In this document: piece by piece, positions 22,743 to 40,146 of the stretch
Position numbering within the stretch: position 1 is the stretch's first letter
Layout of the letters: each line of letters starts with the position of its first letter
IMG/VR virus record: IMGVR_UViG_3300032243_000867
Span: 64,001-128,000 of that record
Origin: a virus
Lineage: Duplodnaviria; Caudoviricetes
Length of the DNA: 64,000 nt
Reading direction: 5' to 3' (one strand)
The notes under the pieces: model-generated
What the model was told of the DNA's origin: nothing
Databases searched by the model: none
The model's input: the letters and a program-made list of their open reading frames with translations, nothing else
Made by a program: the position numbers and the translations under genes

Positions 22743-24590
22743 ATGACCCTTGCCAACCTCGTTCTCTCTGGTGCGCGTGCGGTTTCTCCCGCGAACGCCT
22801 CTACTTCTGTCGCGAACATCATCGAGTTCGTTGAGGAGCCTTGGGGCCTCGGGATGCAACTGTTCCCGATCCAGAAGATCATCCTCAAGGCTCACTATGG
22901 ACTCCCTCTCGATGACACGCAGACCTTCACGGTGACCGATTGGCGGCGGCAGAACCCCCGCCAGATGACCGAGAAGGAGTACCTCGCCTACCTGTACAGC
23001 GAGGGGCGGTCGAACATCAAAGAGGTGGTGCCGGGGCACGAGCGCCGGGAGATGATCCTCTCCATCGGTCGCCGTTCTGGCAAGACCACAATCAGCGCGT
23101 GCATCTCCGCCTACGAGACGTACAAGCTCATCTCGAAGGGCGACCCCCAGGCGTACTACGGGCTTCCGCAGAGCAACATGATCCAGTTGATCTCGGTCGC
23201 CACCGACAAAGATCAGGCGGGTCTGCTCTACCAAGAGGTGTCCGGGCACTTTCGGAACTGTGCGTTCTTCGGCCCGTACACCGCCAACAACACCATGTCC
23301 TATGCGCGCTTCCAGACGCCGAAGGACGTAGAGCGGTACGGGGCCTACTCAGACGATCCGAGCGCGAAGGCCACCGTCAAGGTCACCTTCCGTAGCTGCG
23401 TCGCTAAAGGTCTCCGTGGCGCGGGCAACATCGTCGTGATTCTCGACGAGGTGGCGCACTTCACCGACGCGGGGCAGTCCTCCGCCGACGCCGTGTACAA
23501 CGCCGTCGTCCCGTCTACCTCCGCGTACTCGGCCAAAGATCCCAAGGACCGCCGCAAGCCCATCGGTCAGGTAGAGGGCCGAATCATCCTGATCTCCAGC
23601 CCACTGGGTAGGCAGGGGCTGTTCTACAAGATGTTCCAGATCGGCATGGGCGGCGGAATGGCCGCAGAGAATATGCTCTGCATCCAAGCGCCGACGTGGG
23701 AGGTGAACCCCACGGTCCCGGCGCACGAATTTGAGAAGCACTACCTGAAGGACCAAGCGGTCTTCTTCACGGAGTACGGCGGCGAGTTCAGCGACCGCAC
23801 CCGTGGGTGGATCGAGCGGGGCGACGACCTCGTGGCGTGCGTGGAAACGTCTGCGCGCCCTCAGCAGAGGGGAATCCCCCGCGTTGCGTACTTTCTCGGC
23901 CTGGACTTGGGCCTCGTTGGGGACGGTACGGCGGTATCCATCGGTCACCTAGACCCGAACGGGCACATCGTCGTAGACCTCGTAGACCAGATCAAGGCGG
24001 GTGCCGGGAAATACGTCGGAAAGGAACGGCTGGAGTTCGACGACGTGGCCGACTGGGTTCTGGACCTGTCGAAGCGGTTCTACATTCAGGAAGGAATGTT
24101 CGACCAGTGGTCGGGCATTCCGTTCGAGCAAGCTCTCTCCAAGAGGGGGCTGAGCCAGATGAAGTCGCATCCCATGACGAAACAACTCACGTCCCAGATG
24201 TTCCAGAACTTCAAGGACATGATGTGGGACAAGAAGCTGGTTCTCTACGACTTCCCTATCGCCCCGAACGAGGGTCACTGCCCATACATCGCGGAGCTTC
24301 TAGAGCTACAGGCCGAGTACCACAGCAAGTTCGTGACGACCGTGGAAGCGCCGAACATCGACGGAAAGCACGACGATATGTCCGACGCCCTTGTTCGCAT
24401 GGTGTGGCTGGCGTCGAACCGCCTCTCCAAGAACATTCACCTCTCTGGGGTTCAACGTCAGAACGGTCCGGTAATCCCCGGATACTCCCGCGTAGTTATG
24501 CGCGCGAAGCTACTCCAGAGCGGGTCGCACGAGTCTCGTCAGATCCCTCGTCATGGGTCGGGGGGTCTGCGAAAGTGGGGTCCACGATGA
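22743..24590 (+). CDS. Terminase large subunit
   Basis: Walker A IGRRSGKT, Walker B VILDEVAHF, ISSP coupling motif, RNase H-like FLGLDLG and HDDMSDA. Confidence 0.92.
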   Translation: MTLANLVLSGARAVSPANASTSVANIIEFVEEPWGLGMQLFPIQKIILKAHYGLPLDDTQTFTVTDWRRQNPRQMTEKEYLAYLYSEGRSNIKEVVPGHERREMILSIGRRSGKTTISACISAYETYKLISKGDPQAYYGLPQSNMIQLISVATDKDQAGLLYQEVSGHFRNCAFFGPYTANNTMSYARFQTPKDVERYGAYSDDPSAKATVKVTFRSCVAKGLRGAGNIVVILDEVAHFTDAGQSSADAVYNAVVPSTSAYSAKDPKDRRKPIGQVEGRIILISSPLGRQGLFYKMFQIGMGGGMAAENMLCIQAPTWEVNPTVPAHEFEKHYLKDQAVFFTEYGGEFSDRTRGWIERGDDLVACVETSARPQQRGIPRVAYFLGLDLGLVGDGTAVSIGHLDPNGHIVVDLVDQIKAGAGKYVGKERLEFDDVADWVLDLSKRFYIQEGMFDQWSGIPFEQALSKRGLSQMKSHPMTKQLTSQMFQNFKDMMWDKKLVLYDFPIAPNEGHCPYIAELLELQAEYHSKFVTTVEAPNIDGKHDDMSDALVRMVWLASNRLSKNIHLSGVQRQNGPVIPGYSRVVMRAKLLQSGSHESRQIPRHGSGGLRKWGPR

Positions 24591-25173: not shown

Positions 25174-26862
25174 ATGCCCAAGACAAACGAAGATGCGGTT
25201 GAGGTGAAGCGCGTCGCGCCCAAGGAGAAGGGCGCGAAGGTCGGCAAGCCCGGAAAGATCGTCACGTCGTCCATGCGGTCGAAGGTGGCTTTCCCCGCGT
25301 CGGGCGGCACCGTGGGCGGCACGGGGGGCAACTTCTACTCGCCCGAGCTCTCGACCGACTTCCTAGAGCTCCCGCAGTCGCTCGACGAGAAGCGCAACTA
25401 CTTTCGGTTCTTCTACCAGAACGATCCCTTCGTCGGTCAGGCTATCGACCTTCACACCATCCTCCCGCTGTCAAAGACCCGGCTGACCACGCCGAAGGCG
25501 AAAGATCCCGAGCTCGCGCAGAAATCACTGAACTTCTGCACCCGGTGGTCGCGCGAGATCGGGCTCCTTCACCGTCTTCTCGAAATGGTCCACGAGTACA
25601 ACCTCCTGGGGGAAGTCTTTGTCTTCGCAGAAGACACCTCGCCCGATATGCCCGAGGAGGTCACCCACGAGGTGATTCGCGAGCTTGACGAGGACGGCAA
25701 TCCCACCGAGCGCACGGTGCGCCGGGAGGACGCCGACGCCCGCGCCGAGAAGTGGTTGAAGCGCAACTACAGAGGTTGGACGGCGATCCGTGTGCTCCCC
25801 CCGGAGCAGGTCCACATGGAGAGCTTCCCGTTCACCGACGAGAAGATGATTGAGCTCATCCCGGACAGCAAGACCAAGGACATCGTGAACCGCGCCGACA
25901 TGGGCGACGAGTCCGCCATGCGGATCGTCAAGTCCATGCCCGAGGGTGTGGTCAACGCCATCCGAGAAGGCACGAACATCCCGTTGAACACGGACCCCGA
26001 CGCCGGGTCGTTCGTCCACTACATGGCCCAGAAGAAGTCGCAGTACGAGCCTCGCGGGCACTCGATTCTGCAAAGGTGCCTCCGCACCCTCGTGTACCGG
26101 GACAAGCTGCGCCAAGCGCAGACCAGCATCGCTTCGCGCCACATGACGCCCATTCGCATCGTGACGGCGGCGGATATGTCCGCGACGGATACGGACGCCC
26201 TGCGCGACCAGGTGGACCTCGCCCTTCAAGACCCGGATTACTCGATCATCACGAACTTCGAGGTGAACTGGAACGAGATGGGATCGCAGGGGAGGCTCCT
26301 AGAGCTCTCCAGCGAGTACGACATGACCGACCGCCAGATGTACGCGGGGCTCGGTGTGACGGAGTCCCTACTGTCGGGCGAGAGCTCGTACTCGGGCGAC
26401 CGCATCAACCTCGAAGTCATCAACACCCGGTATATGCTCCTGCGAGAAGTCTTGCAGGACATGGTCGAGGACAAGATGCTTCGCCCGATGTGCCGCCGCA
26501 TGGGGTTCATCGAGACCGACGAAGACGGTAACGAGACGGTCATCTGCCCTTCCCTGTCGTTCACGCGCCTCGCACTCCGGGACAACGCGGACACGTTCGA
26601 CGCCCTGTTCAACCTCTACCAGAAGGGCTCGCTGGACGTGGACGTGATTCTGGAGCTGCTGAACATCGACCCGTACACCACCCGCGAGCGGCTCAAGCGC
26701 GACGTGTTCACGTTCAACGACAGCAAGTTCAACGACGTGCTGGGGGGGATCTACTCCGAGGCGGGCCGCGCCCTCGCGGAGAACAGCGACGTGGTGGCGA
26801 AGATCGCGGAAACCTTGGGGTTGAAGTACGCGAAGCCCCAGACCGAGGAGGGGCGTTTCTGA
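25174..26862 (+). CDS. Portal protein
   Basis: 562 aa after TerL; FFYQNDPFVGQAIDLH, helical core and RMGF clip/crown pattern typical of large-phage portals. Confidence 0.8.
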   Translation: MPKTNEDAVEVKRVAPKEKGAKVGKPGKIVTSSMRSKVAFPASGGTVGGTGGNFYSPELSTDFLELPQSLDEKRNYFRFFYQNDPFVGQAIDLHTILPLSKTRLTTPKAKDPELAQKSLNFCTRWSREIGLLHRLLEMVHEYNLLGEVFVFAEDTSPDMPEEVTHEVIRELDEDGNPTERTVRREDADARAEKWLKRNYRGWTAIRVLPPEQVHMESFPFTDEKMIELIPDSKTKDIVNRADMGDESAMRIVKSMPEGVVNAIREGTNIPLNTDPDAGSFVHYMAQKKSQYEPRGHSILQRCLRTLVYRDKLRQAQTSIASRHMTPIRIVTAADMSATDTDALRDQVDLALQDPDYSIITNFEVNWNEMGSQGRLLELSSEYDMTDRQMYAGLGVTESLLSGESSYSGDRINLEVINTRYMLLREVLQDMVEDKMLRPMCRRMGFIETDEDGNETVICPSLSFTRLALRDNADTFDALFNLYQKGSLDVDVILELLNIDPYTTRERLKRDVFTFNDSKFNDVLGGIYSEAGRALAENSDVVAKIAETLGLKYAKPQTEEGRF

Positions 26863-26872
26863 ACTCCGATAC

Positions 26873-28111
26873 TTACGGGGCCGTCCCCTGATCGGTTCTC
26901 GTTTCAACGGAATCTGCCCGGATCGCTCCGGGTCTTACGTTTCCTCCACGAGCAGTAACCGGGGTTCCCCCGGCCAGAAAGTTTAGACCCCAACCCCGAA
27001 GGTTGAGTGCCGCGTTCACGTCGCGGTCTTGGGCGTACCCACAACAGTCGCAAACGTAGATGCGCTCCGATAGGGGTAGCGACGACTTCACGTCCCCGCA
27101 GCCGTTACAGGTCTTGCTGGACGGATAGAAGCGGTCTGATACAACGAGCTTCACCCCGTACCACTCACACTTGTACGTCAGTTGACGGCGAATCTCCGCG
27201 AACGATGCGGAGCTTACAGACCGGGCTAGGCTGAGGTTCCGGGTCATACCCGTCACGTTCAAGTCCTCGATGACGATAGCAGCGGGCCGCTTGGTTTTCA
27301 CGATCTCGCTGGTCATTTTGTGGAGGGCGTCCGCCCGTTGATTGCTGATCCGTGCGTGAGCGCGGGCGAAGCGGTCCTTGGTCTCGGCCCTCCGTTGCGA
27401 TCCTTTCTGTTGTCGCGATAGCTTCCGTTGAAGGCGTGCTAGGGACGCTTGCGACCGTTCAAGGTGCTTCGGGTTCTGGTAGTCCGTTCCGTCCGATAGC
27501 GTCGCGAGGGTCTTGATGCCGAGGTCGATTCCGAGAACCTCCCCAGTCGTTTCGACCTTCGGAGGGTCGGGTACTTCAACCAGAACGGTTGCGAACCACC
27601 GCCCTGCGACCTCGCTCACGGTGACGGTCTTGAGGGGTACGTCCGTGGGGACGTAGCCCCGCTGCTTCAACCGCACGGGGCCGATCTTCGGAAGTCGAAC
27701 GTGCGTCTGGGTGACCGAAGCCTTTTGCGGAAATTGAAACGACGGTTTGGACACCCCGCGCTTCTTGAACTTTGGGTAGCCGGGGGTCTGTCCCGCCTTC
27801 ACCCGGCGGAAAAATCCTTGAAACGCCCGGTCGAGATTACGAACGGACATCTGGAGGGATTGAGCGGTCACCTCCGCGAGCCAAGGACGCTCGACCTTCA
27901 ATGCCGGGAGGCGGGCTTGAAGATCGAGGGGACGTAGGGCTCCCTTCACCTTCTCGCCTTCGGGGGTCGCGGCCTTTCGATCCGCGTAGTCCTTCGTCAA
28001 GGTAGCGAGGCCCCAGTTGTAGACGAACCTCACCGCCCCGGCATGACGGACGAAGGCAGTCCGCTGCCGGTCGTTGGGGTCCAACTCCACCCTGTAGGCC
28101 CGCAGGATCAC
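26873..28111 (-). CDS. tnpB: TnpB RNA-guided nuclease (IS200/IS605/IS607 family)
   Basis: GTG at 28111 (ILRAYRVELDP HTH); RuvC-I GIDLGIK, RuvC-II IVIEDL, zinc ribbon CNGC...CDCC and RuvC-III DRDVNAA, all intact. Confidence 0.93.
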   Translation of the reverse strand: MILRAYRVELDPNDRQRTAFVRHAGAVRFVYNWGLATLTKDYADRKAATPEGEKVKGALRPLDLQARLPALKVERPWLAEVTAQSLQMSVRNLDRAFQGFFRRVKAGQTPGYPKFKKRGVSKPSFQFPQKASVTQTHVRLPKIGPVRLKQRGYVPTDVPLKTVTVSEVAGRWFATVLVEVPDPPKVETTGEVLGIDLGIKTLATLSDGTDYQNPKHLERSQASLARLQRKLSRQQKGSQRRAETKDRFARAHARISNQRADALHKMTSEIVKTKRPAAIVIEDLNVTGMTRNLSLARSVSSASFAEIRRQLTYKCEWYGVKLVVSDRFYPSSKTCNGCGDVKSSLPLSERIYVCDCCGYAQDRDVNAALNLRGWGLNFLAGGTPVTARGGNVRPGAIRADSVETRTDQGTAP

Positions 28112-28263
28112 TCGACAGGTGCCTTCGGTTGCGAGGCCATCTCGCGGAGGACGAGCTCGCGAATGACTTGGGCGCGAGGCACCCGACGCCGAATACTCTC
28201 GGCTTTGAGCCATTCGATTTGGTCCGGGTCAAACCCAACAAGCACTTGAACCTTCGCTGACAT
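28108..28263 (-). CDS. Ribbon-helix-helix (CopG-like) protein, 51 aa, coupled to tnpB
   Basis: MSAKVQVLVGFDPDQIEWLKAESIRRRVPRAQVIRELVLREMASQPKAPVE; its stop overlaps the tnpB GTG (GTGA); absent from the ORF track. Confidence 0.75.
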   Translation of the reverse strand: MSAKVQVLVGFDPDQIEWLKAESIRRRVPRAQVIRELVLREMASQPKAPVE

Positions 28264-28344: not shown

Positions 28345-28788
28345 ATGAACCGCCGCGCCGACGAGACGCCTGACCTCCTACCGATCATGCACCCCCTCTA
28401 CAACATGAGGGAGGTGTGCAAGCAGACGGCGTTGCTTGAGGACCACCTCAACAACGAGCGCAAGCGGTGTACGGACTGCATTCGTAAGCACTTCCTCACC
28501 ATCGAAGCCCTGCTGGAAGAGGCGGTCAGCCTCGACAACAAGGCCAAGTGGGCCGACCTCCTCGGCGGCAAGGTCGAGCTCGTGCGGGAATGCCAAGCCC
28601 GCTGGATCGACGGCGAGGAGCCTTGCGACATCGCCCAAGACCTCCGCGTGGTCCGCAAGGAGCTCACCCCAGAGTGCTTCGACCTCCGAGAGATGACCTC
28701 CGAGTCTCGGCTGGCTAGCTCCCGGTCGCCCCTATACCGTCAGGTCGCGGGCCGGTACCTTTCGCGCGGATTCCACTTCTGTCGGTGA
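28345..28788 (+). CDS. Hypothetical head-cluster protein
   Basis: CKQ...LLEDHL...CTDCIRKH; C-terminal RQVAGRYL motif. Confidence 0.65.
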   Translation: MNRRADETPDLLPIMHPLYNMREVCKQTALLEDHLNNERKRCTDCIRKHFLTIEALLEEAVSLDNKAKWADLLGGKVELVRECQARWIDGEEPCDIAQDLRVVRKELTPECFDLREMTSESRLASSRSPLYRQVAGRYLSRGFHFCR

Positions 28789-28791
28789 CGT

Positions 28792-29337
28792 ATGACCCCC
28801 ACGAAGATCGCGGTATTTGACTTCGACGGGACGCTGTTCCGCAGTCCCGAGAAGCCCGATAGCTGGGCCGAAGGGTGGTGGGGCAACCCCGTTTCCCTGA
28901 ACCCGCCCGTGGTGCCGGAAGCCCCCGGTGTGGGTTGGTGGAACGCTTCCGTGGTGCAGCGGGCGAAGGAGGACATCGCTAGCGACGAGGTCTTCGCCGT
29001 GATGGTCACGGGGCGGCTGGCCAAGAAGTTCACCGCGCGCGTGAAGGACTTGCTGGCGCACGCGGGTCTGAAGTTCGACCGAATCTACCTAGCCCCCGGC
29101 GGCGACACGGAGTCGTACAAGCTGCGGGTGATCGGTGATCTCATCAAGGAGTTTCCCACCGTCACGGGCGTGGACCTCTGGGAAGACCGCGCCCCGCACC
29201 TTGCGAAGTTCTCGGATTTCGTGGAGTCGAAGGGCCGTGCGGCGTTCCCGCACCTTATCACCGTGTCGGCCCAGAAGCCCGAAGGGTTGCCCAGCGCCGC
29301 GAAGGTGGCGAGCTTATACCTGTCGCGGAGGCAGTGA
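28792..29337 (+). CDS. HAD-family phosphatase, Swiss-Army-Knife RNA-repair-like
   Basis: FDFDGTLFRSP, WW...WN, MVTGR, K and WEDR HAD motifs I-IV; ends KVASLYL. Confidence 0.8.
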   Translation: MTPTKIAVFDFDGTLFRSPEKPDSWAEGWWGNPVSLNPPVVPEAPGVGWWNASVVQRAKEDIASDEVFAVMVTGRLAKKFTARVKDLLAHAGLKFDRIYLAPGGDTESYKLRVIGDLIKEFPTVTGVDLWEDRAPHLAKFSDFVESKGRAAFPHLITVSAQKPEGLPSAAKVASLYLSRRQ

Positions 29338-32300
29338 TGTCGGTCGGACTGTTCCTACCCCTTCCCGAGAAGCTCGCGTCAAAATTCCCCTCGCTAGGGG
29401 ATCATGACACGTCGCCCCCGCACGCGACCCTTCTGTACTTCGGGGACGCCCCCGAGGACCGGGAGCGGTTTCTCGCGGTCATCCGTTCGCACCTGAGCCA
29501 ATGGCCGGGGAAAATCACCGCGACACTTCGCGGGCTCCGTCACTTCGACAACGCCGATGCCACGGTGGCCTACGACAGCGTGCGCTTCGACGCCGATGTG
29601 GCGGGTCTGCGTTCTTCCCTCATCGCGCACCTGTCGGACAACGGGTTCCCCTCGACGGATAGGTCTCCCGTCCGCTACTTCCCCCACGTCACGCTGGCCT
29701 ACCTACCGCCTAACAGCGTAGGTGCGTACGGGGGTCCGGTGCCCGTGGGTTCATGGACCTTCGACGAGGTGGAAGTCTGGGGTCTGGAGGATGACCCGGT
29801 GGTGCTACCGCTGGGCGGTGTATCCGTTACCCGCGTCGCCGCCCGTTACAAGTCCAAGAAGAAGATCGAAACCAAGGACGGCGACGAAGCCACGGTGTAC
29901 GAGTACAGCGACCGTCAGGTCGCCAACCGTCACCGTGAAAAGGCCGAGCGGGTCGAGCACCTGCGAAACCACATCACGGACCTCCGCGCGCGGGTGAAGG
30001 ACGATCTGAAGTCCGACGACCCCATGACCCGGATGACGGCCCTCGCCGTGTCTCTCATGGACCACACCTGTGAGCGGGTGGGGAACGACGACAGCGCAGA
30101 CGACGGCCACTACGGCGTCACGGGCTGGCTGAAGAAGCACATCACCATCCGGGACGGCAAGGCCACGATCAAGTACGTCGGCAAGTCCGGGGTCGATCAC
30201 GAAAAGACCGTGGACGACGGCCCCACGGTCACCGCCCTGAAGGAACTGTGCGAAGGGCTTGGGAAGGAAGACGCCATCTTCGACACGGACGACGCGAAGG
30301 TCAGCGCCGACGAGGTGAACGACTACCTCGCGGAGTTCGATGTCACCGCCAAGGACATCCGGGGCTTTCGCGCCAACGACGAGATGTGCAAGGCCCTACG
30401 GGCGGAACGCGCCAAGGGACCGAAAGAGCTCCCCCGCGCCCGCAAGGAGAAGGACGAGATCCTCAAGGCCGAGTTCAAGCGGGCGCTGGAGACGGTCGCG
30501 GAGGTGGTGGGCCACGAAGCCGCCACCCTACGCTCCCAGTACCTCGTGCCGGGGCTGGAAGACCAGTACGTACACGACGGGACGGTGCTGAAGTCCCTCA
30601 AGGTAGGCACCAAGACCGAAGCCCAGCGCGAGGACGAGGCCACGGAGAAGTTGGTGAAGCCCGCGCCGAAGGCAAAGCCCCCGCGCCACGATCTACGGAA
30701 CGAACGGGTGGAAGCTGAGGGCGACCCCGACCTCGACGACACCGACGACGACCTGTCGCTGAACTTCAAGAAGGTCGCGGGGATCGTTCGTGCGGCGCTG
30801 TTTGCGGGAATGTCTCGCCGCGTGTTGTCGAGATCTCAGAGCAAAGTACAAGAGTTCAAGAAGTTTCCCACTCGGGCGGACACCCGGCACCGAGTACAAG
30901 AGTTCCCCGCAGTTGATGCGAAGGCCGTTCAAGAAGAGTCGGAGTTTCAGAAATACGTCGAAGGTGAGAAATTTCGCACGAACAAGTCGGACCGAGAAGA
31001 AGGCGTGTCTTTCTCCTACCTGGAAAAGATCGACCCCCAAGCGGCCAAGAAGGTCCGAAAGGATTGGGGCAAGAAGAGAACCCAGGACACCCCTCAAGAC
31101 TCCCTTAAAAATCGGGAGAAGAAGCAAAAGGAACTGTCGAAGCCCTCTTCCCCCGAACAAATCCAGAAGCTGGTAGAGGAAATCCAGTCTTCGGAATCCG
31201 CCAAGGCTATGACCGAGGGGGACCGCGAAAACGTATCGAACCTGATCTCTTCCGTCATGGACGGTCAGAGCGGCAATTCCAACGAGAAGCTGAACGCTCG
31301 TATCGAGAAGTACAACGCGGAATCCGTCGAGAAGCTCAAGGGCGGAACGGACCGCAAGACGGTGGACGCTCTGCGAAAGGTGCCCGAGGGGCTCTACGGC
31401 AAGGGCGTGAAGATGACCACGTTCGACTCGAAGAAGTCGGGCGACGCCATCGCCAAGAAGCAGAAGGCCCGCGACAAGATCCAGAAGGACCTCGAACAAG
31501 CCAAGCGGGACGGGGAGAGCCTTCCGTCTGAAATCGAGCGGGCGAAATATGAGAAGAAGGTCAAGGAACAAGAACTCAAGGGCGAACAAACCAAGCTGAA
31601 AGGTTTGAAAGAGGGCACCCCGGAGCACGCACGCCGGAAGTCGAGAGTGTCCACGCTTCAGGCGGCTATCGAAAAGCTGGACGTTTCGATAACGGGCGGC
31701 ACCAAGAAGAGGGATGCCGACGAAAAGCTCCTTCCGGCACTGAAGGCGTCTCTGGACAAGGAGACGAGCGAACTCAACGCGATGACGGCGTATCACGTCT
31801 CGCAGGAGCACCTGTCGTCGCGTTTGACCGATATGTCGTCGTTGAAGTCGGACTCCCCCTCGGAGCGCCTTTCCGAAGCCTCCAAGCACTTGCAGGCGCT
31901 GCCCCCTGAGATGCGGGACAAGTCCATCGAACGGTCGAAGGCACGGCGGGACGAGAAGAAGAAGGAGCTGGACAACGCCTCGTCGGACGAGGAACGGGCG
32001 GCGTTGCAGAAGGAAGTCGATCTGGCCGACGCCGAGCTCGCAGCGGGGACCCACGACAAGTACCTGCGAATGGACGAGAGGGAAGCGGACGAAGACCCGA
32101 AGGCGTCCCTCTTCCGTTCGCTGAATGACCGGGGTATCGGGGTCAACGACCCCCACGTACAGACGTTGCTCCATGAGAAGGCCAACCAAGCAGACGCGGC
32201 GAAAGCTGTACGCAATCTCTCCACAGAACTATCCGACGAGGAACTCTCGGAACTGTCCAAGAAGTCTTCAACCCTCGGTCACGCCTATGAGAGTCTCAAG

Positions 32301-32804
32301 GATTCCCCCTTCCTCGCCCAGATGCTCCGAGAGATGATCGTCGAGGAGATGGTGGGGGAGTTCCAGAAGGGGCGCGCGAAGGGTAAGTCCGACAAGGGTA
32401 AGCCCCGGGACGCCGAGAAGGTGAAGGAGCTCGCGGAAGCGGCTAAGGACCTGCCCGAGAAGGACCGGGAGACCGTCAAGAAGGTCGTCCGTGAAAAAGC
32501 CAAGGACCTCCCCGCCGCGGACCGCGAGACCGTCGAGGACATCGTCGATCTGGACATCCCAGACGCCTCCAGTACGTCTACGTCAGAAGGCGGGAAACAA
32601 AAACAGACGTTGAGCCTGCCGGAGTACCGTCAGATGCTTCTCGACGGAGCCAAAGACGCCGACGCTCGCCGAAAGACCCAGGAGATGAGCTCCGAGGATC
32701 TTAAAAAGCGTTGGGAGTCATACAAAGCCGGAAAGACCGCTGGTGCCCCCCTCCCGGAGTCGGTTGCCCGCCGTTTTCTCTCTTATTCGCGGCGGGGTAG
32801 GTAG
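29334..32804 (+). CDS. Fusion protein: 2H phosphoesterase + type IB topoisomerase catalytic domain + long Lys/Glu coiled coil
   Basis: HATL and HVTL (2H); ERVGN, GKSG, AKDIRGF and VVGHEAATLRSQY (TopIB R-K-R-H-Y pentad); charged helical C-terminal region of about 680 aa. Confidence 0.85.
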   Translation: MMSVGLFLPLPEKLASKFPSLGDHDTSPPHATLLYFGDAPEDRERFLAVIRSHLSQWPGKITATLRGLRHFDNADATVAYDSVRFDADVAGLRSSLIAHLSDNGFPSTDRSPVRYFPHVTLAYLPPNSVGAYGGPVPVGSWTFDEVEVWGLEDDPVVLPLGGVSVTRVAARYKSKKKIETKDGDEATVYEYSDRQVANRHREKAERVEHLRNHITDLRARVKDDLKSDDPMTRMTALAVSLMDHTCERVGNDDSADDGHYGVTGWLKKHITIRDGKATIKYVGKSGVDHEKTVDDGPTVTALKELCEGLGKEDAIFDTDDAKVSADEVNDYLAEFDVTAKDIRGFRANDEMCKALRAERAKGPKELPRARKEKDEILKAEFKRALETVAEVVGHEAATLRSQYLVPGLEDQYVHDGTVLKSLKVGTKTEAQREDEATEKLVKPAPKAKPPRHDLRNERVEAEGDPDLDDTDDDLSLNFKKVAGIVRAALFAGMSRRVLSRSQSKVQEFKKFPTRADTRHRVQEFPAVDAKAVQEESEFQKYVEGEKFRTNKSDREEGVSFSYLEKIDPQAAKKVRKDWGKKRTQDTPQDSLKNREKKQKELSKPSSPEQIQKLVEEIQSSESAKAMTEGDRENVSNLISSVMDGQSGNSNEKLNARIEKYNAESVEKLKGGTDRKTVDALRKVPEGLYGKGVKMTTFDSKKSGDAIAKKQKARDKIQKDLEQAKRDGESLPSEIERAKYEKKVKEQELKGEQTKLKGLKEGTPEHARRKSRVSTLQAAIEKLDVSITGGTKKRDADEKLLPALKASLDKETSELNAMTAYHVSQEHLSSRLTDMSSLKSDSPSERLSEASKHLQALPPEMRDKSIERSKARRDEKKKELDNASSDEERAALQKEVDLADAELAAGTHDKYLRMDEREADEDPKASLFRSLNDRGIGVNDPHVQTLLHEKANQADAAKAVRNLSTELSDEELSELSKKSSTLGHAYESLKDSPFLAQMLREMIVEEMVGEFQKGRAKGKSDKGKPRDAEKVKELAEAAKDLPEKDRETVKKVVREKAKDLPAADRETVEDIVDLDIPDASSTSTSEGGKQKQTLSLPEYRQMLLDGAKDADARRKTQEMSSEDLKKRWESYKAGKTAGAPLPESVARRFLSYSRRGR

Positions 32805-32890
32805 TGGGAGAATCCCGCCGGGGCCTCCCCCCGTTCCAGTTCAAGAGCGCCCACGGTGACCCCGGCGGGACCAGAAGGAGACTCAATCTC

Positions 32891-33526
32891 ATGACCACGA
32901 AGAAGGCTTCCAAGACGGGTGCTCGTCGCGTCACGGCGACCCTCGATTCCCTCGCTTCTCTGTTCCAGAACCACCACGCCTCGCTCGGCATCCCGAGCAA
33001 GGTGGCGATGGACTTCGCGCTTCGTTGTGACCTTCTGTCGGACAGCATCGACCGCCGCAAGCAGGCGGGCTACTTCAACCCCGCCGAGATCGGTGAGGAG
33101 CAGCCCGGTCCGATGATGTTCGACGAGAACAACCCCTTCATGGAGGGTGAGTTCACGCAGGAGGAGAAGCGCGACCTCAGCGAGAAGCAGATGGCGGGCG
33201 AGCTCGCGGCGAACGCGGCGAAGCACGTCGCGGACCCGAAGCTCGCTTCGGACATCAAGAAGGCCGCGTACGACGCTGCCCTCGCCGCTCTCCGCAAGGC
33301 CAAGAAGGCCGACGAGAGCGAGAAGGACGCCGAGGACGAGAGCGAGAAGGACGCCGAGGACGAGAGCGAGAAGGACGAAGCGGCGCAGAAGACGGCCATG
33401 ATGGCCCAGCTCTACAACCGCATCCGCCGTCAGGCCAAGAAGTCCGAGGAAGCCCCCGCGAAGGAGGCCGACGACGAGGGTGAGGAACCCGCCAAGACGG
33501 CCAGCCTCTTCGGCCTGTTTCGCTGA
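32891..33526 (+). CDS. Acidic low-complexity head/core protein
   Basis: AGAAGGAG SD before ATG 32891; DESEKDAE 24-nt repeats at about 33310-33380; many KxA/RQAKK motifs. Confidence 0.7.
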   Translation: MTTKKASKTGARRVTATLDSLASLFQNHHASLGIPSKVAMDFALRCDLLSDSIDRRKQAGYFNPAEIGEEQPGPMMFDENNPFMEGEFTQEEKRDLSEKQMAGELAANAAKHVADPKLASDIKKAAYDAALAALRKAKKADESEKDAEDESEKDAEDESEKDEAAQKTAMMAQLYNRIRRQAKKSEEAPAKEADDEGEEPAKTASLFGLFR

Positions 33527-33529
33527 ACG

Positions 33530-34090
33530 GTGACCCCCATGAAGCCGTCCCGTAGGGCCACTTACGTCAACTACCAAGCCCGTGCCAGCGCCTTCAAGGT
33601 GGGGGACCGGGTGTACCCGATCCTCAAGGGCAACCCGAGTAACGGCGGAACCGTCGTTGCGGTGTGGCCCGCTATCGGGATGGTGGACGTTCAGTACCCC
33701 CACGGGACGGCTCGTGCCCCGGTGGAAGACCTCCTCATCGACCGTGGAACCACCATCGAGTCCGAGGTAGACATCCAATCGGATACCGTTCCGGGGGGCA
33801 CCCACACGGTGCCCGTGTCGGGCGGTCCCGGCCCCGAGAGAACGGACTCCACTCACCGGGTCGCCTCCCGGCACCTCAAGAGAGCCGTGTATTGGGCAGC
33901 GCCCAACCGTCAGTACCGCCCCACGAAGCAAGAGCTCGTCACAAACAAGCTGTGCTGCCCCCGCTGCGACGAGAGCTATCTGAGGAGGTCCACCTACAAG
34001 ATGGAGGAGGGGACTCAGGTCAAGCTGTTCGTATGTCCCTCGTGCCTTTTCATCGTTCGTCGCGACGACGTTGCAGGATTCGGGGAGTGA
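33530..34090 (+). CDS. Hypothetical protein (SH3-like + zinc ribbon)
   Basis: FKVGDRV...GTVVAV...VDVQY; RVASRHL; CPRC...CPSC. Confidence 0.6.
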   Translation: MTPMKPSRRATYVNYQARASAFKVGDRVYPILKGNPSNGGTVVAVWPAIGMVDVQYPHGTARAPVEDLLIDRGTTIESEVDIQSDTVPGGTHTVPVSGGPGPERTDSTHRVASRHLKRAVYWAAPNRQYRPTKQELVTNKLCCPRCDESYLRRSTYKMEEGTQVKLFVCPSCLFIVRRDDVAGFGE

Positions 34091-34097
34091 TCTGACC

Positions 34098-36827
34098 ATG
34101 CCTCTGATGAAGTACGCCAAAGCGATAAAGGCCCCTACCCTTTCCGCAAGCCTGTACGGCGGGGGTTGGGATAACGTCCGAGTTGCAGCTTCCCAAACCC
34201 GACTTGACCGCAACCTTTCCGATCAAGCCTCCAAGATTCTGAAGGAGACCTTCGATCCGTCGAAGTACCTCCTCAGCCATTGTACGATCGTAGCCTCGGT
34301 GGATACCGTAGAGGTACCCTCCTCCCGCCTCGGGTCTTCGATGGTGGATGGTAAGAAGGTCGTTCGTAAGACGACCGCCTACCGCATTACCCCTTCGACC
34401 GAGTGCTATGTGAACAACAACTTCGATAGCTGGGCGCGGCCCGTGCTGCTGAAGTCGTACAAGACGTTCACGGGGGCGTTCAACTTTTTGGAGCACGTCC
34501 AGATCGAGGACTTGTCCAAGGGTCGCATCCTGGACGCCGTTGCCCGGGACATCGGGGACAGCGTTTACGTTGACATCCTCATCGCCACGGATCGCAAGCA
34601 CACGGAGCTCATCAAGGACATCGAGAGCGGTGAGCTTTCTACCCTCTCGATGGGCTGTTTCCTCCCCGGCACGCAGGTGTCTCTCGCAGACGGCACCCGC
34701 GTTGCCATCGAGGACGTGCAAGTCGGGGACATGGTGCTCACCCACAAAGGCCGTTCCCGCGAGGTTCTGAACAAGCAGATCCGAGGCGGCAAGTGGGGCG
34801 TGAGGCGTATCGAAGCGGTAGGTGTACCGTCCGCCATCACGGCGACGGACATACACCCGTTCTTCGTCTTTCGTCTACCCGACGTGTGCGCGTGCGGATG
34901 TGGCGAGTCCCTACCGGCGTCCTACTCGTCGGGCAAGAGGACGGCACTACCCAATCGCCTCTCGCGGCGGTTCAAGGACGGCCACAACCTCCGCATACTC
35001 AATCCTAACGGGACGTACTCGCTGGAGGAGCGGGCCGCACGACAGGACCGTCTCGATGCCCTCTTCTCCCCCCGTATGGAAGAGGTGAAGGCGGCGGATC
35101 TCAAGGTCGGGGACTTCCTGTGTTTCCCGAGATCGCAGTTCGGCACAGGGGTGGACACCCCCCCTGGTCGAGCTCGCCTCTTGGGGTATTTCCTCGCGGA
35201 GGGAAACTTCCAGAAGCGGGACGGGAAGCACCACACCGTCGAGTTCAACTTCTCACTCCACGAGCGGGACACCTACGCCGCCGAGGTGATGAGGCTGCTG
35301 ACCGAAGAGTTCCCCGGATGCAACCCCCGGCTCTACACGGCGGGCGAGTCAGATGGGTGCGCGGCGACCGTGGTCGTCGCGGGCTCCGACATCGCGGCGT
35401 GGTTCCTTAAGCACGGCGGGGAGTACAGCCACGGGAAGCGCCTTCATCCCGACGTGATGGCGTGGAGCGTCGAGAACCAACTCCACCTTCTCGGTGCGTG
35501 GGTCAATGGTGACGGGAACCTCCAGAAGGGGGGTGCCACTTCTGTCACTACCGTGTCCTACGACCTCGTCTGCCAGATGCACGCGATCATGGCGCGCTGC
35601 GGCATCTACGCCCGAATGTACGGGTTGGTGCAGGGTAAGTCGGTCGATGTCGCGGAGGTGGTGAACGGGGGGCTCGTGCAGACCCTCTGTGACGACGGCT
35701 CTTACCGCCGTCCGTCGTTCCAACTAGACTTGGGGCAGACCCAATCACAAGCCCTTCGCGGACGGTGTGATAAGGTCAGGCTTGACCCCAAGTTCCAGAC
35801 GCAAGCCTGTCGCGTGCAGGATGACGTGGTGATGTTCCCGATCACCTCCATCGAGGCCCAGACCTACGAGGGCTGGGTTCACGACATGGAAGTCGAGGAA
35901 GACCACTCCTACGTCGTGGAGGGTGTGGCCGTACACAACTGCTCGATCGACGGCAGCACCTGCACCAAGTGCGGACATTGGGCCGCTGACGAGACTGAGT
36001 TTTGCGACCATGTCAAGTACATGAAGGGCAACACCTTCTACGACGAGAAGGGTGTGAAGCACCGCATCGCGGAACTGTGCGGCGACGTGACCCTAGATCC
36101 TACGGGCGGGGTGCAGTTCATCGAAGCTAGCTGGGTGAAGGTCCCGGCGTTCAAGGGCGCGGTTGCTCGTAACCTCATCACCCTGTCCAGCGACGACAAG
36201 GGCAAGACCGCCAAGCGCATCCAGAAAGTGGTGGGCACCCCGGCTCCGAAGGTTCCCGCCGACGGGTACTTGAAGGCGGCTCGTCGAATTCACGCTGACG
36301 AGTTTGGGCTGGACGACGCGGGCGAAGATGCCGCGAAGGAACCCGAGGCCCCCCCCGGGCCCGCCGACCCTTTGAAGGGCATCACGGACGAACTCAAGAA
36401 GTACGTCCTCGACAACCTAGCGAAGTCGCTGAAGGAAGACCTGTCGAAGTCGGACCTCACCAAGGCTCTCCTCCCCCCGGAACCGTCTACCGCACCCAAC
36501 GACACGGTGGTGAAGCAAGCTCGCGCGAAGCGGGCCGCGTACCTGTCACAGGTGCGTAGCATCGTCCGCACGGCCAGCACCGACCGGGATTTGGTACAGA
36601 AAATCGCCCGCCTGAATCGAGAACACGCGATTTTTGTTCCCGTAATTCTCTATCGCACAGCCCTAAAGGTCGGGGGTTCGCACCGTTACGCGAGCCTTTC
36701 CTCTTTCATCGGCGGGTGCCAGAAGTGTCTTGGCCGATACCCCACGGTTGGGGAAGCCCGTACGCTGATTCGTTTGGCCAAGCTGATCACAACCCGTTCT
36801 GTCGGCGTCACGCCGAAGAAGCCCTAA
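34098..36827 (+). CDS. Capsid maturation (prohead) protease with an intein
   Basis: FLEH, LSMG/C...CTKCG...CDH and FIEASWVKVPAFKGA, the HK97/assemblin-type protease pattern; located before scaffold and MCP. Confidence 0.8.
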   Translation: MPLMKYAKAIKAPTLSASLYGGGWDNVRVAASQTRLDRNLSDQASKILKETFDPSKYLLSHCTIVASVDTVEVPSSRLGSSMVDGKKVVRKTTAYRITPSTECYVNNNFDSWARPVLLKSYKTFTGAFNFLEHVQIEDLSKGRILDAVARDIGDSVYVDILIATDRKHTELIKDIESGELSTLSMGCFLPGTQVSLADGTRVAIEDVQVGDMVLTHKGRSREVLNKQIRGGKWGVRRIEAVGVPSAITATDIHPFFVFRLPDVCACGCGESLPASYSSGKRTALPNRLSRRFKDGHNLRILNPNGTYSLEERAARQDRLDALFSPRMEEVKAADLKVGDFLCFPRSQFGTGVDTPPGRARLLGYFLAEGNFQKRDGKHHTVEFNFSLHERDTYAAEVMRLLTEEFPGCNPRLYTAGESDGCAATVVVAGSDIAAWFLKHGGEYSHGKRLHPDVMAWSVENQLHLLGAWVNGDGNLQKGGATSVTTVSYDLVCQMHAIMARCGIYARMYGLVQGKSVDVAEVVNGGLVQTLCDDGSYRRPSFQLDLGQTQSQALRGRCDKVRLDPKFQTQACRVQDDVVMFPITSIEAQTYEGWVHDMEVEEDHSYVVEGVAVHNCSIDGSTCTKCGHWAADETEFCDHVKYMKGNTFYDEKGVKHRIAELCGDVTLDPTGGVQFIEASWVKVPAFKGAVARNLITLSSDDKGKTAKRIQKVVGTPAPKVPADGYLKAARRIHADEFGLDDAGEDAAKEPEAPPGPADPLKGITDELKKYVLDNLAKSLKEDLSKSDLTKALLPPEPSTAPNDTVVKQARAKRAAYLSQVRSIVRTASTDRDLVQKIARLNREHAIFVPVILYRTALKVGGSHRYASLSSFIGGCQKCLGRYPTVGEARTLIRLAKLITTRSVGVTPKKP
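34656..35939 (+). mobile_element. Intein (428 aa) with LAGLIDADG endonuclease in the prohead protease
   Basis: Starts CFLPGTQVSLADG; block B ATDIHPF; LLGYFLAEG and LLGAWVNGDG; ends VHDMEVEEDHSYVVEGVAVHN before Cys+1. Confidence 0.95.
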
Positions 36828-36839
36828 CAGGAGAAATCA

Positions 36840-38366
36840 ATGACTCGACGCCGACTGACGTGGAATGGCCGTATGGCCAGCGCGCCCCCCGCGATGCCGG
36901 GGTACCAGGAGCCCAGCGTTCACCCCGCCGCGTACCCCGATCCCGAGGCCGACGCCTACGAGAACGGTGACACGTCGTCGTGGGCCGAGGACCCGCACCC
37001 CGGCCCCTACCCGAACACGTTCCACCCGGCGCTTCCGGGCACCGAGGAGCCCATGGGGCACCCGGCGACGGACCCGAAGCACTACTTCCCGGCGGGCGTG
37101 ACGAAGCAGGCGAGCCGCCAGCTTCGCGCCGCGATGGAAGTCAAGGCCGCGAAGTGCATCCGCATCGCGCAGTCGATGCTGGGTCGCAAGGCGTCGGTCA
37201 GCGCCATCGAGGATCAGGCCCTCGACCTGATGAACCTCACCGAGCGTCAGATCGCCGCTGCGCTTTCGCGCATCGCGGATGACGGCATGGCGCAGGACGT
37301 TCCGACCGAGGCCAGCATGGACCTCCTCGCCGTCGAGAACATGACCCTCACCCCGGAGCGCACGAGCGACGAGGATCTTCTCGCGGAGATGCTTCAAGCG
37401 GGCGGTGACGAAGGCCCTATGTCCGATGAGCAGATCCTCGCGGGGATGATCGCGGAGCAGAAGGCCAAGATGTCGGGTATGCACATGGCGTCGCGCAAGC
37501 GCGCCTTCGGTGCGTACGACAAGATGCCCGGTGACCAGAACGACCCGGCTCACTACAACTTCCGCGCTGAGGGCGTTCTCGCTTCGGCCAAGAAGTCGGA
37601 AGACGCCGAGGCCGAGGAGATGCTCTCCGAAATGGTGAAGGAGGAGAAGAAGGCTTCCCTTCGCCGTCAGGCCAAGAAGTCCGAGGACGAGACCGCCGAA
37701 GAGGCCCCCGAAGCCGAGACGGCGGGCGAAGAGGAGCCCAAGGCCGAGAAGAAGGCCGCTCACTTCAAGCGCCTCGCGGCGTACTGGGAGCGCGTCGCCA
37801 AGAAGGCCGAAGAGGAGCCCAAGGCCGAAGAGGAGCCCAAGGCCGAAGAGGAGCCCAAGGCCGAAGAGGAGCCCAAGGCCGACAAGAAGGCCGCTGCCCG
37901 CAAGGCCGCGATTCGCCGTCTCGCTGGCCTGGAGCTCTCGGCGGAGGCCCAGCAGGCTATCGCCGCTCTTCTGAAGGCCGATGCCCAGGAGCCCGTGGCC
38001 GACGAGATCATGGGTGAGGACCTTCCCGTTGCGGGCGAAGATCCCACGGCGGACGACTTCATGATGGACGACATGGGCCTCGAAGACCCGATGCTCATGG
38101 ACGACATGGGCGTGGACGAGCTTTCGATGCTCTACGGCATGAGGCAAGCCAAGAAGTCCGAAGAGGATGAGGCCACCGAGGCCGAAGAGGAGCCCAAGGC
38201 CGAAGAGCCCAAGGCCGAGAAGAAGGCGGCGGTTCGCCCGCAGCCCCGCAAGGCGTCGAACGGCATCAAGTCGGTCGGAGCGGTCGCCAAGGTCGCTTCC
38301 GGCGACGTGAACGACCTGTCGAAGCTGTGGGAGTCGGCTCCCGACGTGAGCAAGATTTTCGGTTGA
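36840..38366 (+). CDS. Putative head scaffold/core protein
   Basis: Acidic, Ala/Glu/Lys-rich, with (KAEEEP)n 18-nt repeats at about 37802-37880; lies between the protease and the decoration/MCP genes; strong SD AGGAG. Confidence 0.65.
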   Translation: MTRRRLTWNGRMASAPPAMPGYQEPSVHPAAYPDPEADAYENGDTSSWAEDPHPGPYPNTFHPALPGTEEPMGHPATDPKHYFPAGVTKQASRQLRAAMEVKAAKCIRIAQSMLGRKASVSAIEDQALDLMNLTERQIAAALSRIADDGMAQDVPTEASMDLLAVENMTLTPERTSDEDLLAEMLQAGGDEGPMSDEQILAGMIAEQKAKMSGMHMASRKRAFGAYDKMPGDQNDPAHYNFRAEGVLASAKKSEDAEAEEMLSEMVKEEKKASLRRQAKKSEDETAEEAPEAETAGEEEPKAEKKAAHFKRLAAYWERVAKKAEEEPKAEEEPKAEEEPKAEEEPKADKKAAARKAAIRRLAGLELSAEAQQAIAALLKADAQEPVADEIMGEDLPVAGEDPTADDFMMDDMGLEDPMLMDDMGVDELSMLYGMRQAKKSEEDEATEAEEEPKAEEPKAEKKAAVRPQPRKASNGIKSVGAVAKVASGDVNDLSKLWESAPDVSKIFG

Positions 38367-38391
38367 TCTGACCGAGACTCGCGCCTTCTAG

Positions 38392-38562: not shown

Positions 38563-39243
38563 ATGCCTTTGACTGGACAGGCGAGCGGTGGCTGGACGGA
38601 GTCGTCGTCGGCTCTACGGATTCTCCACGTTGGTGTTCGTAACACCGTGGGCGTCCTGACTGACGATGCTTTCACCCAGACCAACCCTCCGATCATCAAG
38701 ACTGCTGGGACGGTTTCGACCTCCCCCGGCGCTCTCACCGAAGTTCTCGGCGTCCTCTCGGGCTCCGTGGCCTTCACCCGCCCGGACGCGGGAAGCAACT
38801 TCATCGGTGGACCGACCAAGACCGCGATGGCCCTCCCGGCCAGCGTGACTCAGGTCCTCCCGCTGGGCTGCTTCATCAACTCGGCGGCGGGCAACCCCTA
38901 CGAGAACCTCCCGGCGGTCGCGTCGGGCAAGGGTCCGTACGTGGCCGCGATGGGCACCTACGGTTCGCGCCTGTTCGAGACGCAGGTTCTCGTGACCACC
39001 AACGGCGGTACGGCGGCGGGCACGGCCCTCACCTACGTCGCTGGTATGCGCCTCGTGGCGAGCCAGAACGGCTACCTCATGCCCAGCGTCGTGTTCGCGG
39101 GCGGTGTTCTCGATCCGGTCGATGCGGGCGCGGCCTTCAACACGCTTGAGGGCGTGAACGGCGGCACGGCGACGACCATCGGCATCCTCAAGCTCGCTCC
39201 CGACTCGGTCCAGAACGAGATCGTGTTCGACCAGCGCATCTGA
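38563..39243 (+). CDS. Putative capsid decoration/cement protein
   Basis: Directly upstream of MCP; Gly/Thr/Ala-rich, with TYVAGMRLVASQNGYL. Confidence 0.6.
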   Translation: MPLTGQASGGWTESSSALRILHVGVRNTVGVLTDDAFTQTNPPIIKTAGTVSTSPGALTEVLGVLSGSVAFTRPDAGSNFIGGPTKTAMALPASVTQVLPLGCFINSAAGNPYENLPAVASGKGPYVAAMGTYGSRLFETQVLVTTNGGTAAGTALTYVAGMRLVASQNGYLMPSVVFAGGVLDPVDAGAAFNTLEGVNGGTATTIGILKLAPDSVQNEIVFDQRI

Positions 39244-39264: not shown

Positions 39265-40146
39265 ATGACTACGCCGAACGTCAGCACCGAGATCAAGCAG
39301 AAGATCATCGGGGACTACATCAAGACCGCCGCTGGCCGCGCGAAGCTCGCCGCCAGCATGACGCAGCCGCTCCGTACCCGCCGCGACTACATGAGCGTCG
39401 GTCGCAAGACCTTCCTCGTGGAGCAGCTCCCGGACGGCGCGCTTCCGATCTACGACAAGGACCCGGACGTGACCGCGTACGTGGTGGGTGAGGAAGGCGA
39501 GAACATCCTCGCTATCACCAAGCCCCGCCGCGTGATCTTCCCCCTCTTCGAGATCGCCAGCAACCCCGAGATCCCGCTCACGCAGATCAAGGAGCGTCGC
39601 TTCGACCTCATCGAGCGTTCGCAGGACCTCGCCCGCGCGATGATTCAGGCGGCGGAAGACGAGCGCGTCTTCGCCGTTCTCGACGCCATCGCCGTCAACG
39701 GGTTCGACTCGATCCCCGGCGGCACCAACCCCGACATCCCCGTGGTCGCCCCGCTCAACGGCGCGGTCCTCGCGGATGCGTTCGCCCTCATCGAGCGCCA
39801 CGACCTCCGCGTCGCCCGCGTGTACATGAACGCCCGTGACTACGCGGACGTTCGCAAGTTCGGTCGCGACATCCTCGACATCGAGTCTCAGGCGACCCTG
39901 CTCAAGACCGGCCTCCAGGCGACCCTCTGGGGCGCTCAGGTCATCACGAGCCGTCTCGTCCCCGCTGGCACGGTGTACGTTTGCTGCGAACCGGAAATGT
40001 TCGGTCGGATTCCGGTCCGTACCGAGCTCACGGTCCTCAGCGCCGACGACCCCAAGGCCCGCACCATCGGCTTCTCGGTGTTCGAGAATTTGGGCATTGG
40101 CGCCTACAACCCCCGTGGTCTCGCCCGCCTGACGATCACCCGCTGA
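39265..40146 (+). CDS. Major capsid protein (HK97-fold probable)
   Basis: GRAKLAASM..PLR..RDY...RK...VEQLPDGA...YDKD, FEIASNP and RRFDLIER...EDERVF; highly biased codons; followed by a strong terminator. Confidence 0.8.
   Translation: MTTPNVSTEIKQKIIGDYIKTAAGRAKLAASMTQPLRTRRDYMSVGRKTFLVEQLPDGALPIYDKDPDVTAYVVGEEGENILAITKPRRVIFPLFEIASNPEIPLTQIKERRFDLIERSQDLARAMIQAAEDERVFAVLDAIAVNGFDSIPGGTNPDIPVVAPLNGAVLADAFALIERHDLRVARVYMNARDYADVRKFGRDILDIESQATLLKTGLQATLWGAQVITSRLVPAGTVYVCCEPEMFGRIPVRTELTVLSADDPKARTIGFSVFENLGIGAYNPRGLARLTITR

Follow-up and report, generated by a model that had tools for sequence, protein, structure and literature searches.

A topoisomerase IB fusion protein encoded among the head genes of a clade of huge uncultured phages

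Positions 64,001 to 128,000 of the IMG/VR virus record IMGVR_UViG_3300032243_000867 (Duplodnaviria; Caudoviricetes), a stretch of 64,000 nucleotides hereafter termed the window, contain a gene (29337..32804, + strand) for a protein of 1155 amino acids (aa) that is encoded between the genes for the portal and the probable prohead protease. From its N- to its C-terminus, the protein is composed of a 2H phosphoesterase domain, a type IB topoisomerase (TopIB), a charged extension, a long helical tail and a short terminal tag. The protein is one of a large family of enzyme carriers, encoded in the head module, that occurs in a clade of huge uncultured phages. Across this family we observed intact catalytic residues in the TopIB, synteny with head genes, shuffling of the accompanying modules and a short motif that recurs at module borders and C-termini. 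On balance, we lean towards the interpretation that the gene encodes a capsid cargo polyprotein, delimited into modules by this motif, that would be cut by the head protease and released together with the DNA. The window is part of a 265,895-bp record with a CheckV completeness of 59%, which corresponds to a phage genome of roughly 450 kb; the closest public record, LR745208.1, is an uncultured phage of 485 kb.

Domain composition of the 1155-aa protein

The open reading frame (ORF) spans 1156 codons of the + strand (29334-32804), and our analysis confirms that this feature, first pointed out in a preliminary description made from the sequence alone, is a real gene of 1155 or 1156 aa. Directly after a GTG at 29334 comes an ATG at 29337, whose A is shared with the stop codon of the upstream HAD phosphatase gene (TGATG). 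Because orthologs begin at that methionine and because of this overlap, the ATG is the likelier start and yields 1155 aa; residue numbers given here count from the GTG. All motifs listed in the preliminary description were recovered, namely two HxT motifs (aa 30 and 118), RVAARY (aa 167), ERVGN (aa 247), GKSG (aa 283), KDIRG (aa 340), VVGH (aa 391), SQY (aa 401) and KKVAG (aa 479). Its two domain identities and its proposal of a modular, polyprotein-like build are likewise supported. Examined domain by domain with hidden Markov models and structure prediction, the protein matches 2H and TopIB in Pfam, AlphaFold and Foldseek. Modelled with AlphaFold using 27 homologs, aa 1-480 (mean predicted local distance difference test (pLDDT) score of 82.9) form two confident domains, with a low-confidence linker at aa 163-172 (pLDDT <50) and disorder past aa 424.

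The TopIB core (29847..30599, + strand, aa 172-422) matches the Pfam family Topoisom_I (PF01028) over aa 198-398 with an expectation value (E) of 4.9e-27 and 95.2 bits against a cut-off of 23.7. Sequence matches in the PDB comprise an archaeal enzyme (6z01, E 1.1e-9) and those of D. radiodurans (2f4q, 2.5e-7) and variola virus (2h7f, 2e-3). The TopIB fold is modelled with a pLDDT >85 across aa 173-422, and its best Foldseek match is variola 2h7f (E 4.6e-12, template modelling score 0.61 to the target, ~20% sequence identity); with 3m4a and 1ej9 also matched, the structural neighbours cover variola, bacterial and human TopIBs. The catalytic pentad R248, K284, R343, H394 and Y403 aligns with the conserved boxes of 2f4q and is invariant in two homolog alignments (45/45, a diverse set, and 28/28). 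Pfam, alignment and fold thus bear out the earlier assignment of a complete poxvirus/bacterial-type TopIB with all five catalytic residues. As the pentad does not vary across the 45 diverse homologs, the catalytically complete TopIB presumably works as an enzyme. Poxvirus and bacterial TopIBs (variola/vaccinia 2h7f and 1a41; D. radiodurans 2f4q and 3m4a) have the same core fold and R-K-R-H-Y pentad, and at ~315 aa the phage module is near the size of the poxvirus enzyme. Unlike the latter, it resides inside a 1155-aa head-operon protein, retains only the last hairpin of the N-terminal domain in recognisable form, and carries a conserved charged C-terminal extension as well as flanking junction motifs.

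This extension (30600..30767, + strand, aa 423-478) is conserved and predicted to be disordered, and the segment at aa ~422-428 is a hot spot for domain insertion in homologs. Inteins were considered for interrupted TopIB genes and rejected, since reading through these genes revealed additional in-frame domains at this hot spot (aa ~422). A different interruption occurs in L011 (9190-10001) and also in L012 and L013, where an 810-bp stretch breaks the TopIB gene after ~aa 228. The one frame that was read, common to the flanking TopIB pieces, contains stops in this gap, and Rfam gave no match; the stretch may be an unrecognised intron, a mobile insert or a sign of a split gene. A second TopIB paralog of 468 aa is encoded in the same genome (G000:C1:34665-36083; L004:946-2352), ~58 kb upstream of the head module. 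It is 24% identical and matches PF01028 with E 6e-11; its neighbourhood holds a weak virion-structural match and an endolysin, and no replication genes were seen there.

The N-terminal 2H phosphoesterase domain (29337..29813, + strand, aa 2-160) has a LigT/cyclic phosphodiesterase (CPDase)-like fold that is modelled with a pLDDT of ~90. It matches Pfam 2_5_RNA_ligase2 (PF13563) over aa 24-128 (E 2.4e-10; 41.1 bits against a cut-off of 27). Its two HxT motifs (aa 30-32 and 118-120) and duplicated alpha+beta lobe place it in the LigT/CPDase branch of 2H phosphoesterases, and both H30-x-T32 and H118-x-T120 are retained in 8/8 aligned 2H homologs. The top structural match in Foldseek is the CPDase of D. 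radiodurans (5h7e, E 5.5e-6), with further matches to 5ldm, 1iuh and 4ye2; the enzymes matched include E. coli LigT, Usb1 and the rotavirus VP3 phosphodiesterase (4ye2, E 1.2e-4).

Relatives differ in this part of the protein. In L010/L041 (IMGVR_UViG_3300023174_000057), an internal deletion in the 2H domain of the ortholog merges the two HxT motifs into one with the TopIB intact, which shows a 2H module decaying while the TopIB remains whole. The metagenomic representatives P0007 and P0012, with TopIBs 70-92% identical to that of the gene (92% for P0007), carry an unrelated domain of ~130 aa in place of 2H. This domain matched no Pfam family, and the possibility that it is 2H DNA read in another frame was checked and ruled out.

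C-terminal of the extension follows an all-alpha tail (30810..32732, + strand) with two very long helices and with conserved islands only in the nearest relatives. The AlphaFold model of its 686 aa (pLDDT 78.8) contains alpha-helices only, two of which, 58 and 70 residues long, form a hairpin (aa ~699-756 and ~763-832 of P0001). Many orthologs of ~500 aa do not have the tail (L006, L007, L001).

A constant topoisomerase with variable partners among head genes

An exhaustive profile search against representative clusters with aa 1-480 as query returned 3166 clusters at E<=1e-3, of which 602 reached E<=1e-30. The proteins of these 602 are 354-3381 aa long and have the TopIB module at widely differing places. 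Topoisom_I is present in 45/45 sampled proteins, accompanied by 2H (7-10 proteins), HAD_SAK_1 (4), PAP2 (4) and DUF5661 (3), and in single cases by an inorganic pyrophosphatase domain, a PolyA_pol/CCA-type nucleotidyltransferase or a GNAT domain. HExxH-containing inserts occur only in some relatives. The largest architectures join several enzymes: P0061 (2792 aa) contains an RNA ligase, a CCA-type nucleotidyltransferase, HAD, 2H, g147 and TopIB, and P0018 (3381 aa) contains 2H, a CCA-type enzyme and TopIB. At the other end of the range, L001 encodes a 508-aa HAD-TopIB fusion without 2H or tail, and L006 and L007 encode 2H-TopIB alone. BLAST of the proteins encoded next to the gene in the window against the 150 best representatives revealed fusions of these neighbours into TopIB proteins, with g147 in 13, HAD in 18, 2H in ~40 and g240 in 18 of them, the g240 fusions being invariably C-terminal. 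Since the neighbours are so often fused to TopIB, the portal-to-protease interval appears to represent one modular polyprotein that is split differently between phages.

A scan of IMG/VR yielded 168 contigs with relatives, the longest of 536 kb, of which 80 were kept and searched by tblastn with the head proteins of the window. Nearly all of the 80 loci have the order large terminase (TerL), portal, variable modules, TopIB, variable tail, g240, g186, protease, g508, g226 and major head protein (MCP). A subclade places TopIB between TerL and portal (L035, L055, L074, L076, L091). TerL orthologs with inserts of 1.2-2.4 kb are found in L006, L010 and L016, and portal orthologs with such inserts in L018, L028 and L040.

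In the window, the gene does lie between portal and prohead protease, as had been described; four other genes also fall into this interval, and the protease call is weak. TerL (22743-24590; PHROGs/Pfam) and the portal gene (25174..26862, + strand; phrog_16240, E 5.3e-34) are followed on the - strand by an inserted IS605-type TnpB (26873-28213; OrfB_IS605, a Cas12f1-like TNB domain and a helix-turn-helix) that separates the portal gene from g147. A TnpB remnant occupies the same site in L005/L015, and complete copies are found near TerL in L001/L027. The small Cys/His protein g147 (28345..28788, + strand) and the HAD phosphatase (28792..29337, + strand), which is of the Swiss-Army-Knife RNA-repair type (HAD_SAK; PF10307, E 1.6e-21), both end in the terminal tag. 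Downstream of the gene, g240 (32804..33526, + strand) encodes an acidic protein of the head module; it has a region of acidic repeats and, just behind a copy of the core motif, a C-terminal peptide that is strongly conserved. It is possibly scaffold-like, and its true start is possibly ATG 32891, the ESM Atlas holding the protein only from residue 30; an ESM Atlas search with g240 returned only unnamed viral clusters (0.77-0.80) and identified no fold or family. Next come g186, a conserved protein without assigned function (33530-34090), and the probable prohead protease (34071..36827, + strand), which is interrupted by a Hint and LAGLIDADG intein at ~aa 196-623 and carries the core motif at aa 37 and aa 833. 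Intein-less protease orthologs have ~470 aa (e.g., L005:10572-11984), and the extein of the window's protease gave no match in Pfam or the PDB. The module continues with g508 (36840-38366), g226 (38563-39243) and the MCP (39265..40146, + strand; phrog_2522, E 1.8e-48), which is 80-99% identical across the clade. No strong + strand terminator was found at 28345-38390, where genes abut or overlap with shared start and stop codons.

A recurrent motif at module junctions and C-termini

RVAARY and KKVAG, two of the motifs in the preliminary description, are copies of one recurring motif, [KR][VTIL]A[SAG], mostly followed by x[FYW]L, that flanks modules (consensus [KR][VIL]A[SA]R[FYW]L). The first copy (29829..29849, + strand, aa 166-172) lies in the linker between 2H and TopIB, and the second (30768..30809, + strand, aa 479-492) is a degenerate form of the motif that follows TopIB in relatives. 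The C-terminal tag region (32733..32801, + strand, aa 1134-1156) contains one core 4-mer and then an xVAxxFL-type terminal motif. In every aligned homolog the motif opens the TopIB module and usually it also follows it; giant relatives have it at other domain borders as well. Across 151 proteins, [RK][VIL]A..[YFW] occurs 284 times compared to 32.7 in shuffled sequences, and 17 of these proteins end with the motif.

The genome of the window carries the motif within the last 25 aa in 6/248 genes of a greedy set (7 with HAD, which had been dropped from the set), against 0.8 expected. The tagged proteins are g147, HAD, the 1155-aa protein, the second TopIB paralog, a CCA-adding enzyme of 711 aa and two small proteins without assigned function; the genes of the TopIB paralog and the CCA enzyme lie well away from those of the head. 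This CCA-adding tRNA nucleotidyltransferase (G000:C1:196051-198186; L094; phrog_2244, E 9e-33) has the motif at an internal domain border (aa 299) in addition to its C-terminus. All 3/3 stand-alone HAD proteins end with the motif, compared with none of the C-termini of portal (0/46), TerL (0/41), MCP (0/32), protease (0/47), g186 (0/51) and g226 (0/45) orthologs.

The core 4-mer [KR][VTIL]A[SAG] is enriched only in head-region genes: the + strand genes of window positions 19000-49100 contain 20 copies versus 4.7 expected, and the remaining genome 62 versus 60.9. Within the protease, a core motif at aa ~30-40 is conserved in 40/56 distinct orthologs compared to 2.3 expected, and further copies occur at aa 20-31 of the MCP and, as described above, next to the C-terminal peptide of g240. 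From the sequences, this pattern is what a site for a maturation protease would look like. Short linear cargo signals are known for other shells of the HK97 fold, including the CTS of T4 internal proteins that is cut by gp21, the M-site (Ala|Ser) and C-terminal capsid-binding tail of the herpesvirus scaffold, and the cargo-loading peptides of encapsulins. By analogy with the herpesvirus scaffold, the terminal copy could act as a capsid-binding address. The motif resembles these signals in being terminal or junctional with its core also in the protease and head proteins; its sequence differs from theirs, and the resemblance is one of logic only. Tentatively, and as a possibility that we consider less than probable, [KR][VTIL]A[SAG]-x-[FYW]-L may act both as an address and as a cleavage signal for a general system by which phages of this clade load their capsids with cargo, at least seven enzymes in the present genome. 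Such a system may direct two TopIBs, HAD, 2H, the CCA-adding enzyme, g147 and the small proteins without assigned function, some of them encoded far from head genes, into the procapsid and have them released by the head protease.

Proposed function, alternatives and significance

Packaging of the protein into the virion is made plausible by the conserved position of its gene among head genes, the fusions to g240 and the enrichment of the motif core only in head proteins. From such data we infer a course of packaging, cleavage and ejection as well as likely substrates. The protein would be made late, alongside the head proteins, and enter the procapsid by means of its tail and/or terminal tag; the head protease would then cut at [KR][VTIL]A[SAG] junctions to generate 2H, TopIB and helical pieces. 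As the DNA exits the capsid, these pieces would leave with it, and in the next cell TopIB could serve as a swivel on the incoming ~450-kb genome, comparable to the encapsidated poxvirus TopIB that supports early transcription, while the 2H and HAD pair could heal RNA ends with 2',3'-cyclic phosphates made by host anticodon nucleases or other metal-independent nucleases. To our knowledge, a virion TopIB is known among viruses only for poxviruses. Among the enzymes known from the vaccinia virion, PMC1540416 lists the H6R topoisomerase.

Several observations weigh against a packaged polyprotein. The protease that would cut it is identified by a weak PHROG match (E 2.3e-8) and synteny, and 7/80 loci have no recognisable head genes near the TopIB gene; PHROGs searches of these seven were uninformative. 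The 1155-aa protein itself had no PHROGs match, Foldseek with the tail returned nothing significant (best AhlC, E 0.05; a phage ejectosome chain, E 0.88), and no cultured close relative of the gene was found. The 2H domain is deleted, collapsed or swapped out in close relatives and is therefore not essential to the core role of the family. That orthologs conserve the motif does not count as independent evidence, and the motif could serve for docking or as a linker without any relation to the capsid. The tagged proteins encoded outside the head module would be just as compatible with a non-capsid hub.

One alternative, which we regard as unlikely, is a late cytoplasmic helper that acts near terminase and portal and never enters the capsid. 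There, TopIB would relieve torsion or untangle the ~450-kb DNA during pumping, and the end-processing enzymes that accompany it would provide repair functions expressed late. A gene that is always beside those for TerL and portal, and between them in one subclade, agrees with such a role, as does the confinement of the family to very large genomes (contigs to 536 kb); the invariant pentad implies that catalysis matters. A packaging helper would, however, explain neither the motif that the protein has in common with the protease and further head proteins, nor the g240 fusions, nor the presence of RNA ligase, CCA-adding enzyme and phosphoesterases in the same polypeptide. We also know of no tailed phage that needs a topoisomerase at its packaging motor.

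The preliminary description had further suggested that the 2H domain might be an anti-defence enzyme similar to Acb1, which acts against cyclic-oligonucleotide-based antiphage signalling systems (CBASS). Delivered with the DNA, such a phosphodiesterase would degrade cyclic oligonucleotides. The 2H fold is common to Acb1 and viral 2'-5' phosphodiesterases, rotavirus 4ye2 is among the structures matched, and Iyer et al. 2017 (PMC5512222) proposed degradation of signal nucleotides for the 2H domains of polyvalent proteins. The comparisons made here do not sustain the suggestion, which we consider quite improbable: the nearest structures are of LigT/CPDase type and no specific similarity to Acb1 emerged, with no Acb1 chain among the Foldseek matches listed to E ~1e-3 or among phmmer PDB matches to E 10. 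In addition, 2H is dispensable in close relatives, and relatives combine it with SAK-type HAD, CCA-adding enzyme and RNA ligase. This company points to the healing of RNA 2',3'-cyclic phosphate ends, and the partner set as a whole to nuclease-cut tRNA rather than to cyclic-oligonucleotide degradation. Judged by sequence context, an RNA-end-repair theme fits the 2H domain better than the Acb1/anti-CBASS idea. The same enzyme classes recur in Swiss-Army-Knife and T4-type RNA repair (HAD_SAK, 2H CPDase, Pnkp, RNA ligase and CCA-adding enzyme). The present system differs in that neither this gene nor its immediate neighbours encode a kinase or ligase, and in that the enzymes are tied to TopIB and the head module instead of an early/middle repair operon.

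A mainly structural function seems very improbable. The tail and g240-like parts would then form an internal scaffold or inner body, and the TopIB clamp would grip DNA, for example a genome end, without catalysis. The tail is indeed long, helical and charged, with conserved islands, and the scaffold-like g240 is fused to TopIB proteins in 18 representatives; a pure clamp would not need five catalytic residues that are invariant in 45 diverse homologs, and many orthologs of ~500 aa (L006, L007, L001) do without the tail. We give hardly any credence to a DNA-centred end healing, in which TopIB would create 2',3'-cyclic phosphate nicks at embedded ribonucleotides, as Sekiguchi and Shuman reportedly found for TopIB enzymes in 1997, and 2H and HAD would restore the 3'-OH: the HAD, 2H, PAP2 and pyrophosphatase partners are all phosphoesterases, but the CCA-adding enzyme and RNA ligase point to tRNA, not DNA.

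A packaged, motif-delimited polyprotein would have a close counterpart in the phage polyvalent proteins defined by Iyer et al. 2017 (PMC5512222), who catalogued 2H among their domains and noted some 2H in virion-gene contexts. Polyvalent proteins are likewise large and variable, combine several enzymes and have their genes among those of the virion; packaging and injection are predicted for them, and peptidase processing has been proposed. The present proteins combine unrelated enzyme domains in variable architectures and are encoded within virion and packaging genes in the same manner. Pfam found only 2H and TopIB in the 1155-aa protein and none of the hub domains of polyvalent proteins, such as MuF, portal, zincin metallopeptidase (MPTase) or N4 virion RNA polymerase (vRNAP)-like domains and others. 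In term searches of PMC5512222, 'topoisomerase' came up a single time and 'tyrosine recombinase' not at all, so that TopIB is apparently not among the catalogued domains. The 2H versions of that work never accompany RNA ligases, which they do in relatives here (P0061), and a junction or terminal motif is not described there.

Stand-alone TopIBs have been reported from the jumbo phages phiRSL1, Lu11, PaBG and Motura (Iyer et al. 2021, PMC7824862). These, together with those of PhiXhv/Ep032-type Xanthomonas and Erwinia phages, are also encoded in large phage genomes; identity to them is only 26-27%, and the literature treats them as replication or topology enzymes, with no 2H/HAD fusions or motif system reported. 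In Xanthomonas phage PhiXhv-15 (PV764602.1, 191173-193179; L100), a TopIB core occupies aa ~304-527 of a 668-aa protein that is encoded 2.7 kb upstream of an annotated head-tail connector gene. Such cultured jumbo phages, with genomes of 227-229 kb, might be used in experiments on virion proteomes; no virion data on the topoisomerase are given in the PaBG and PhiXhv papers. Literature searches found no report of TopIB in the virions or head module of jumbo or huge phages and no description of this TopIB head-module family, which is apparently undescribed.

If the protein is indeed packaged, an entire clade of the largest phages known has a TopIB inside its virions, and genome size would be tied to the need for an injected DNA swivel. 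Interchangeable RNA-end-repair and phosphoesterase modules would travel with it, so that tRNA repair would join the pre-packed counter-defences of phages. The short peptide signal would be testable as a capsid-loading or cleavage tag, and given a family of 602 clusters, one experiment could annotate hundreds of giant orphan proteins. Should the tentative proposal of a general cargo-loading system also hold, a TopIB swivel and a tRNA-repair kit would be injected with half-megabase genomes by a programmable, encapsulin-like logic.

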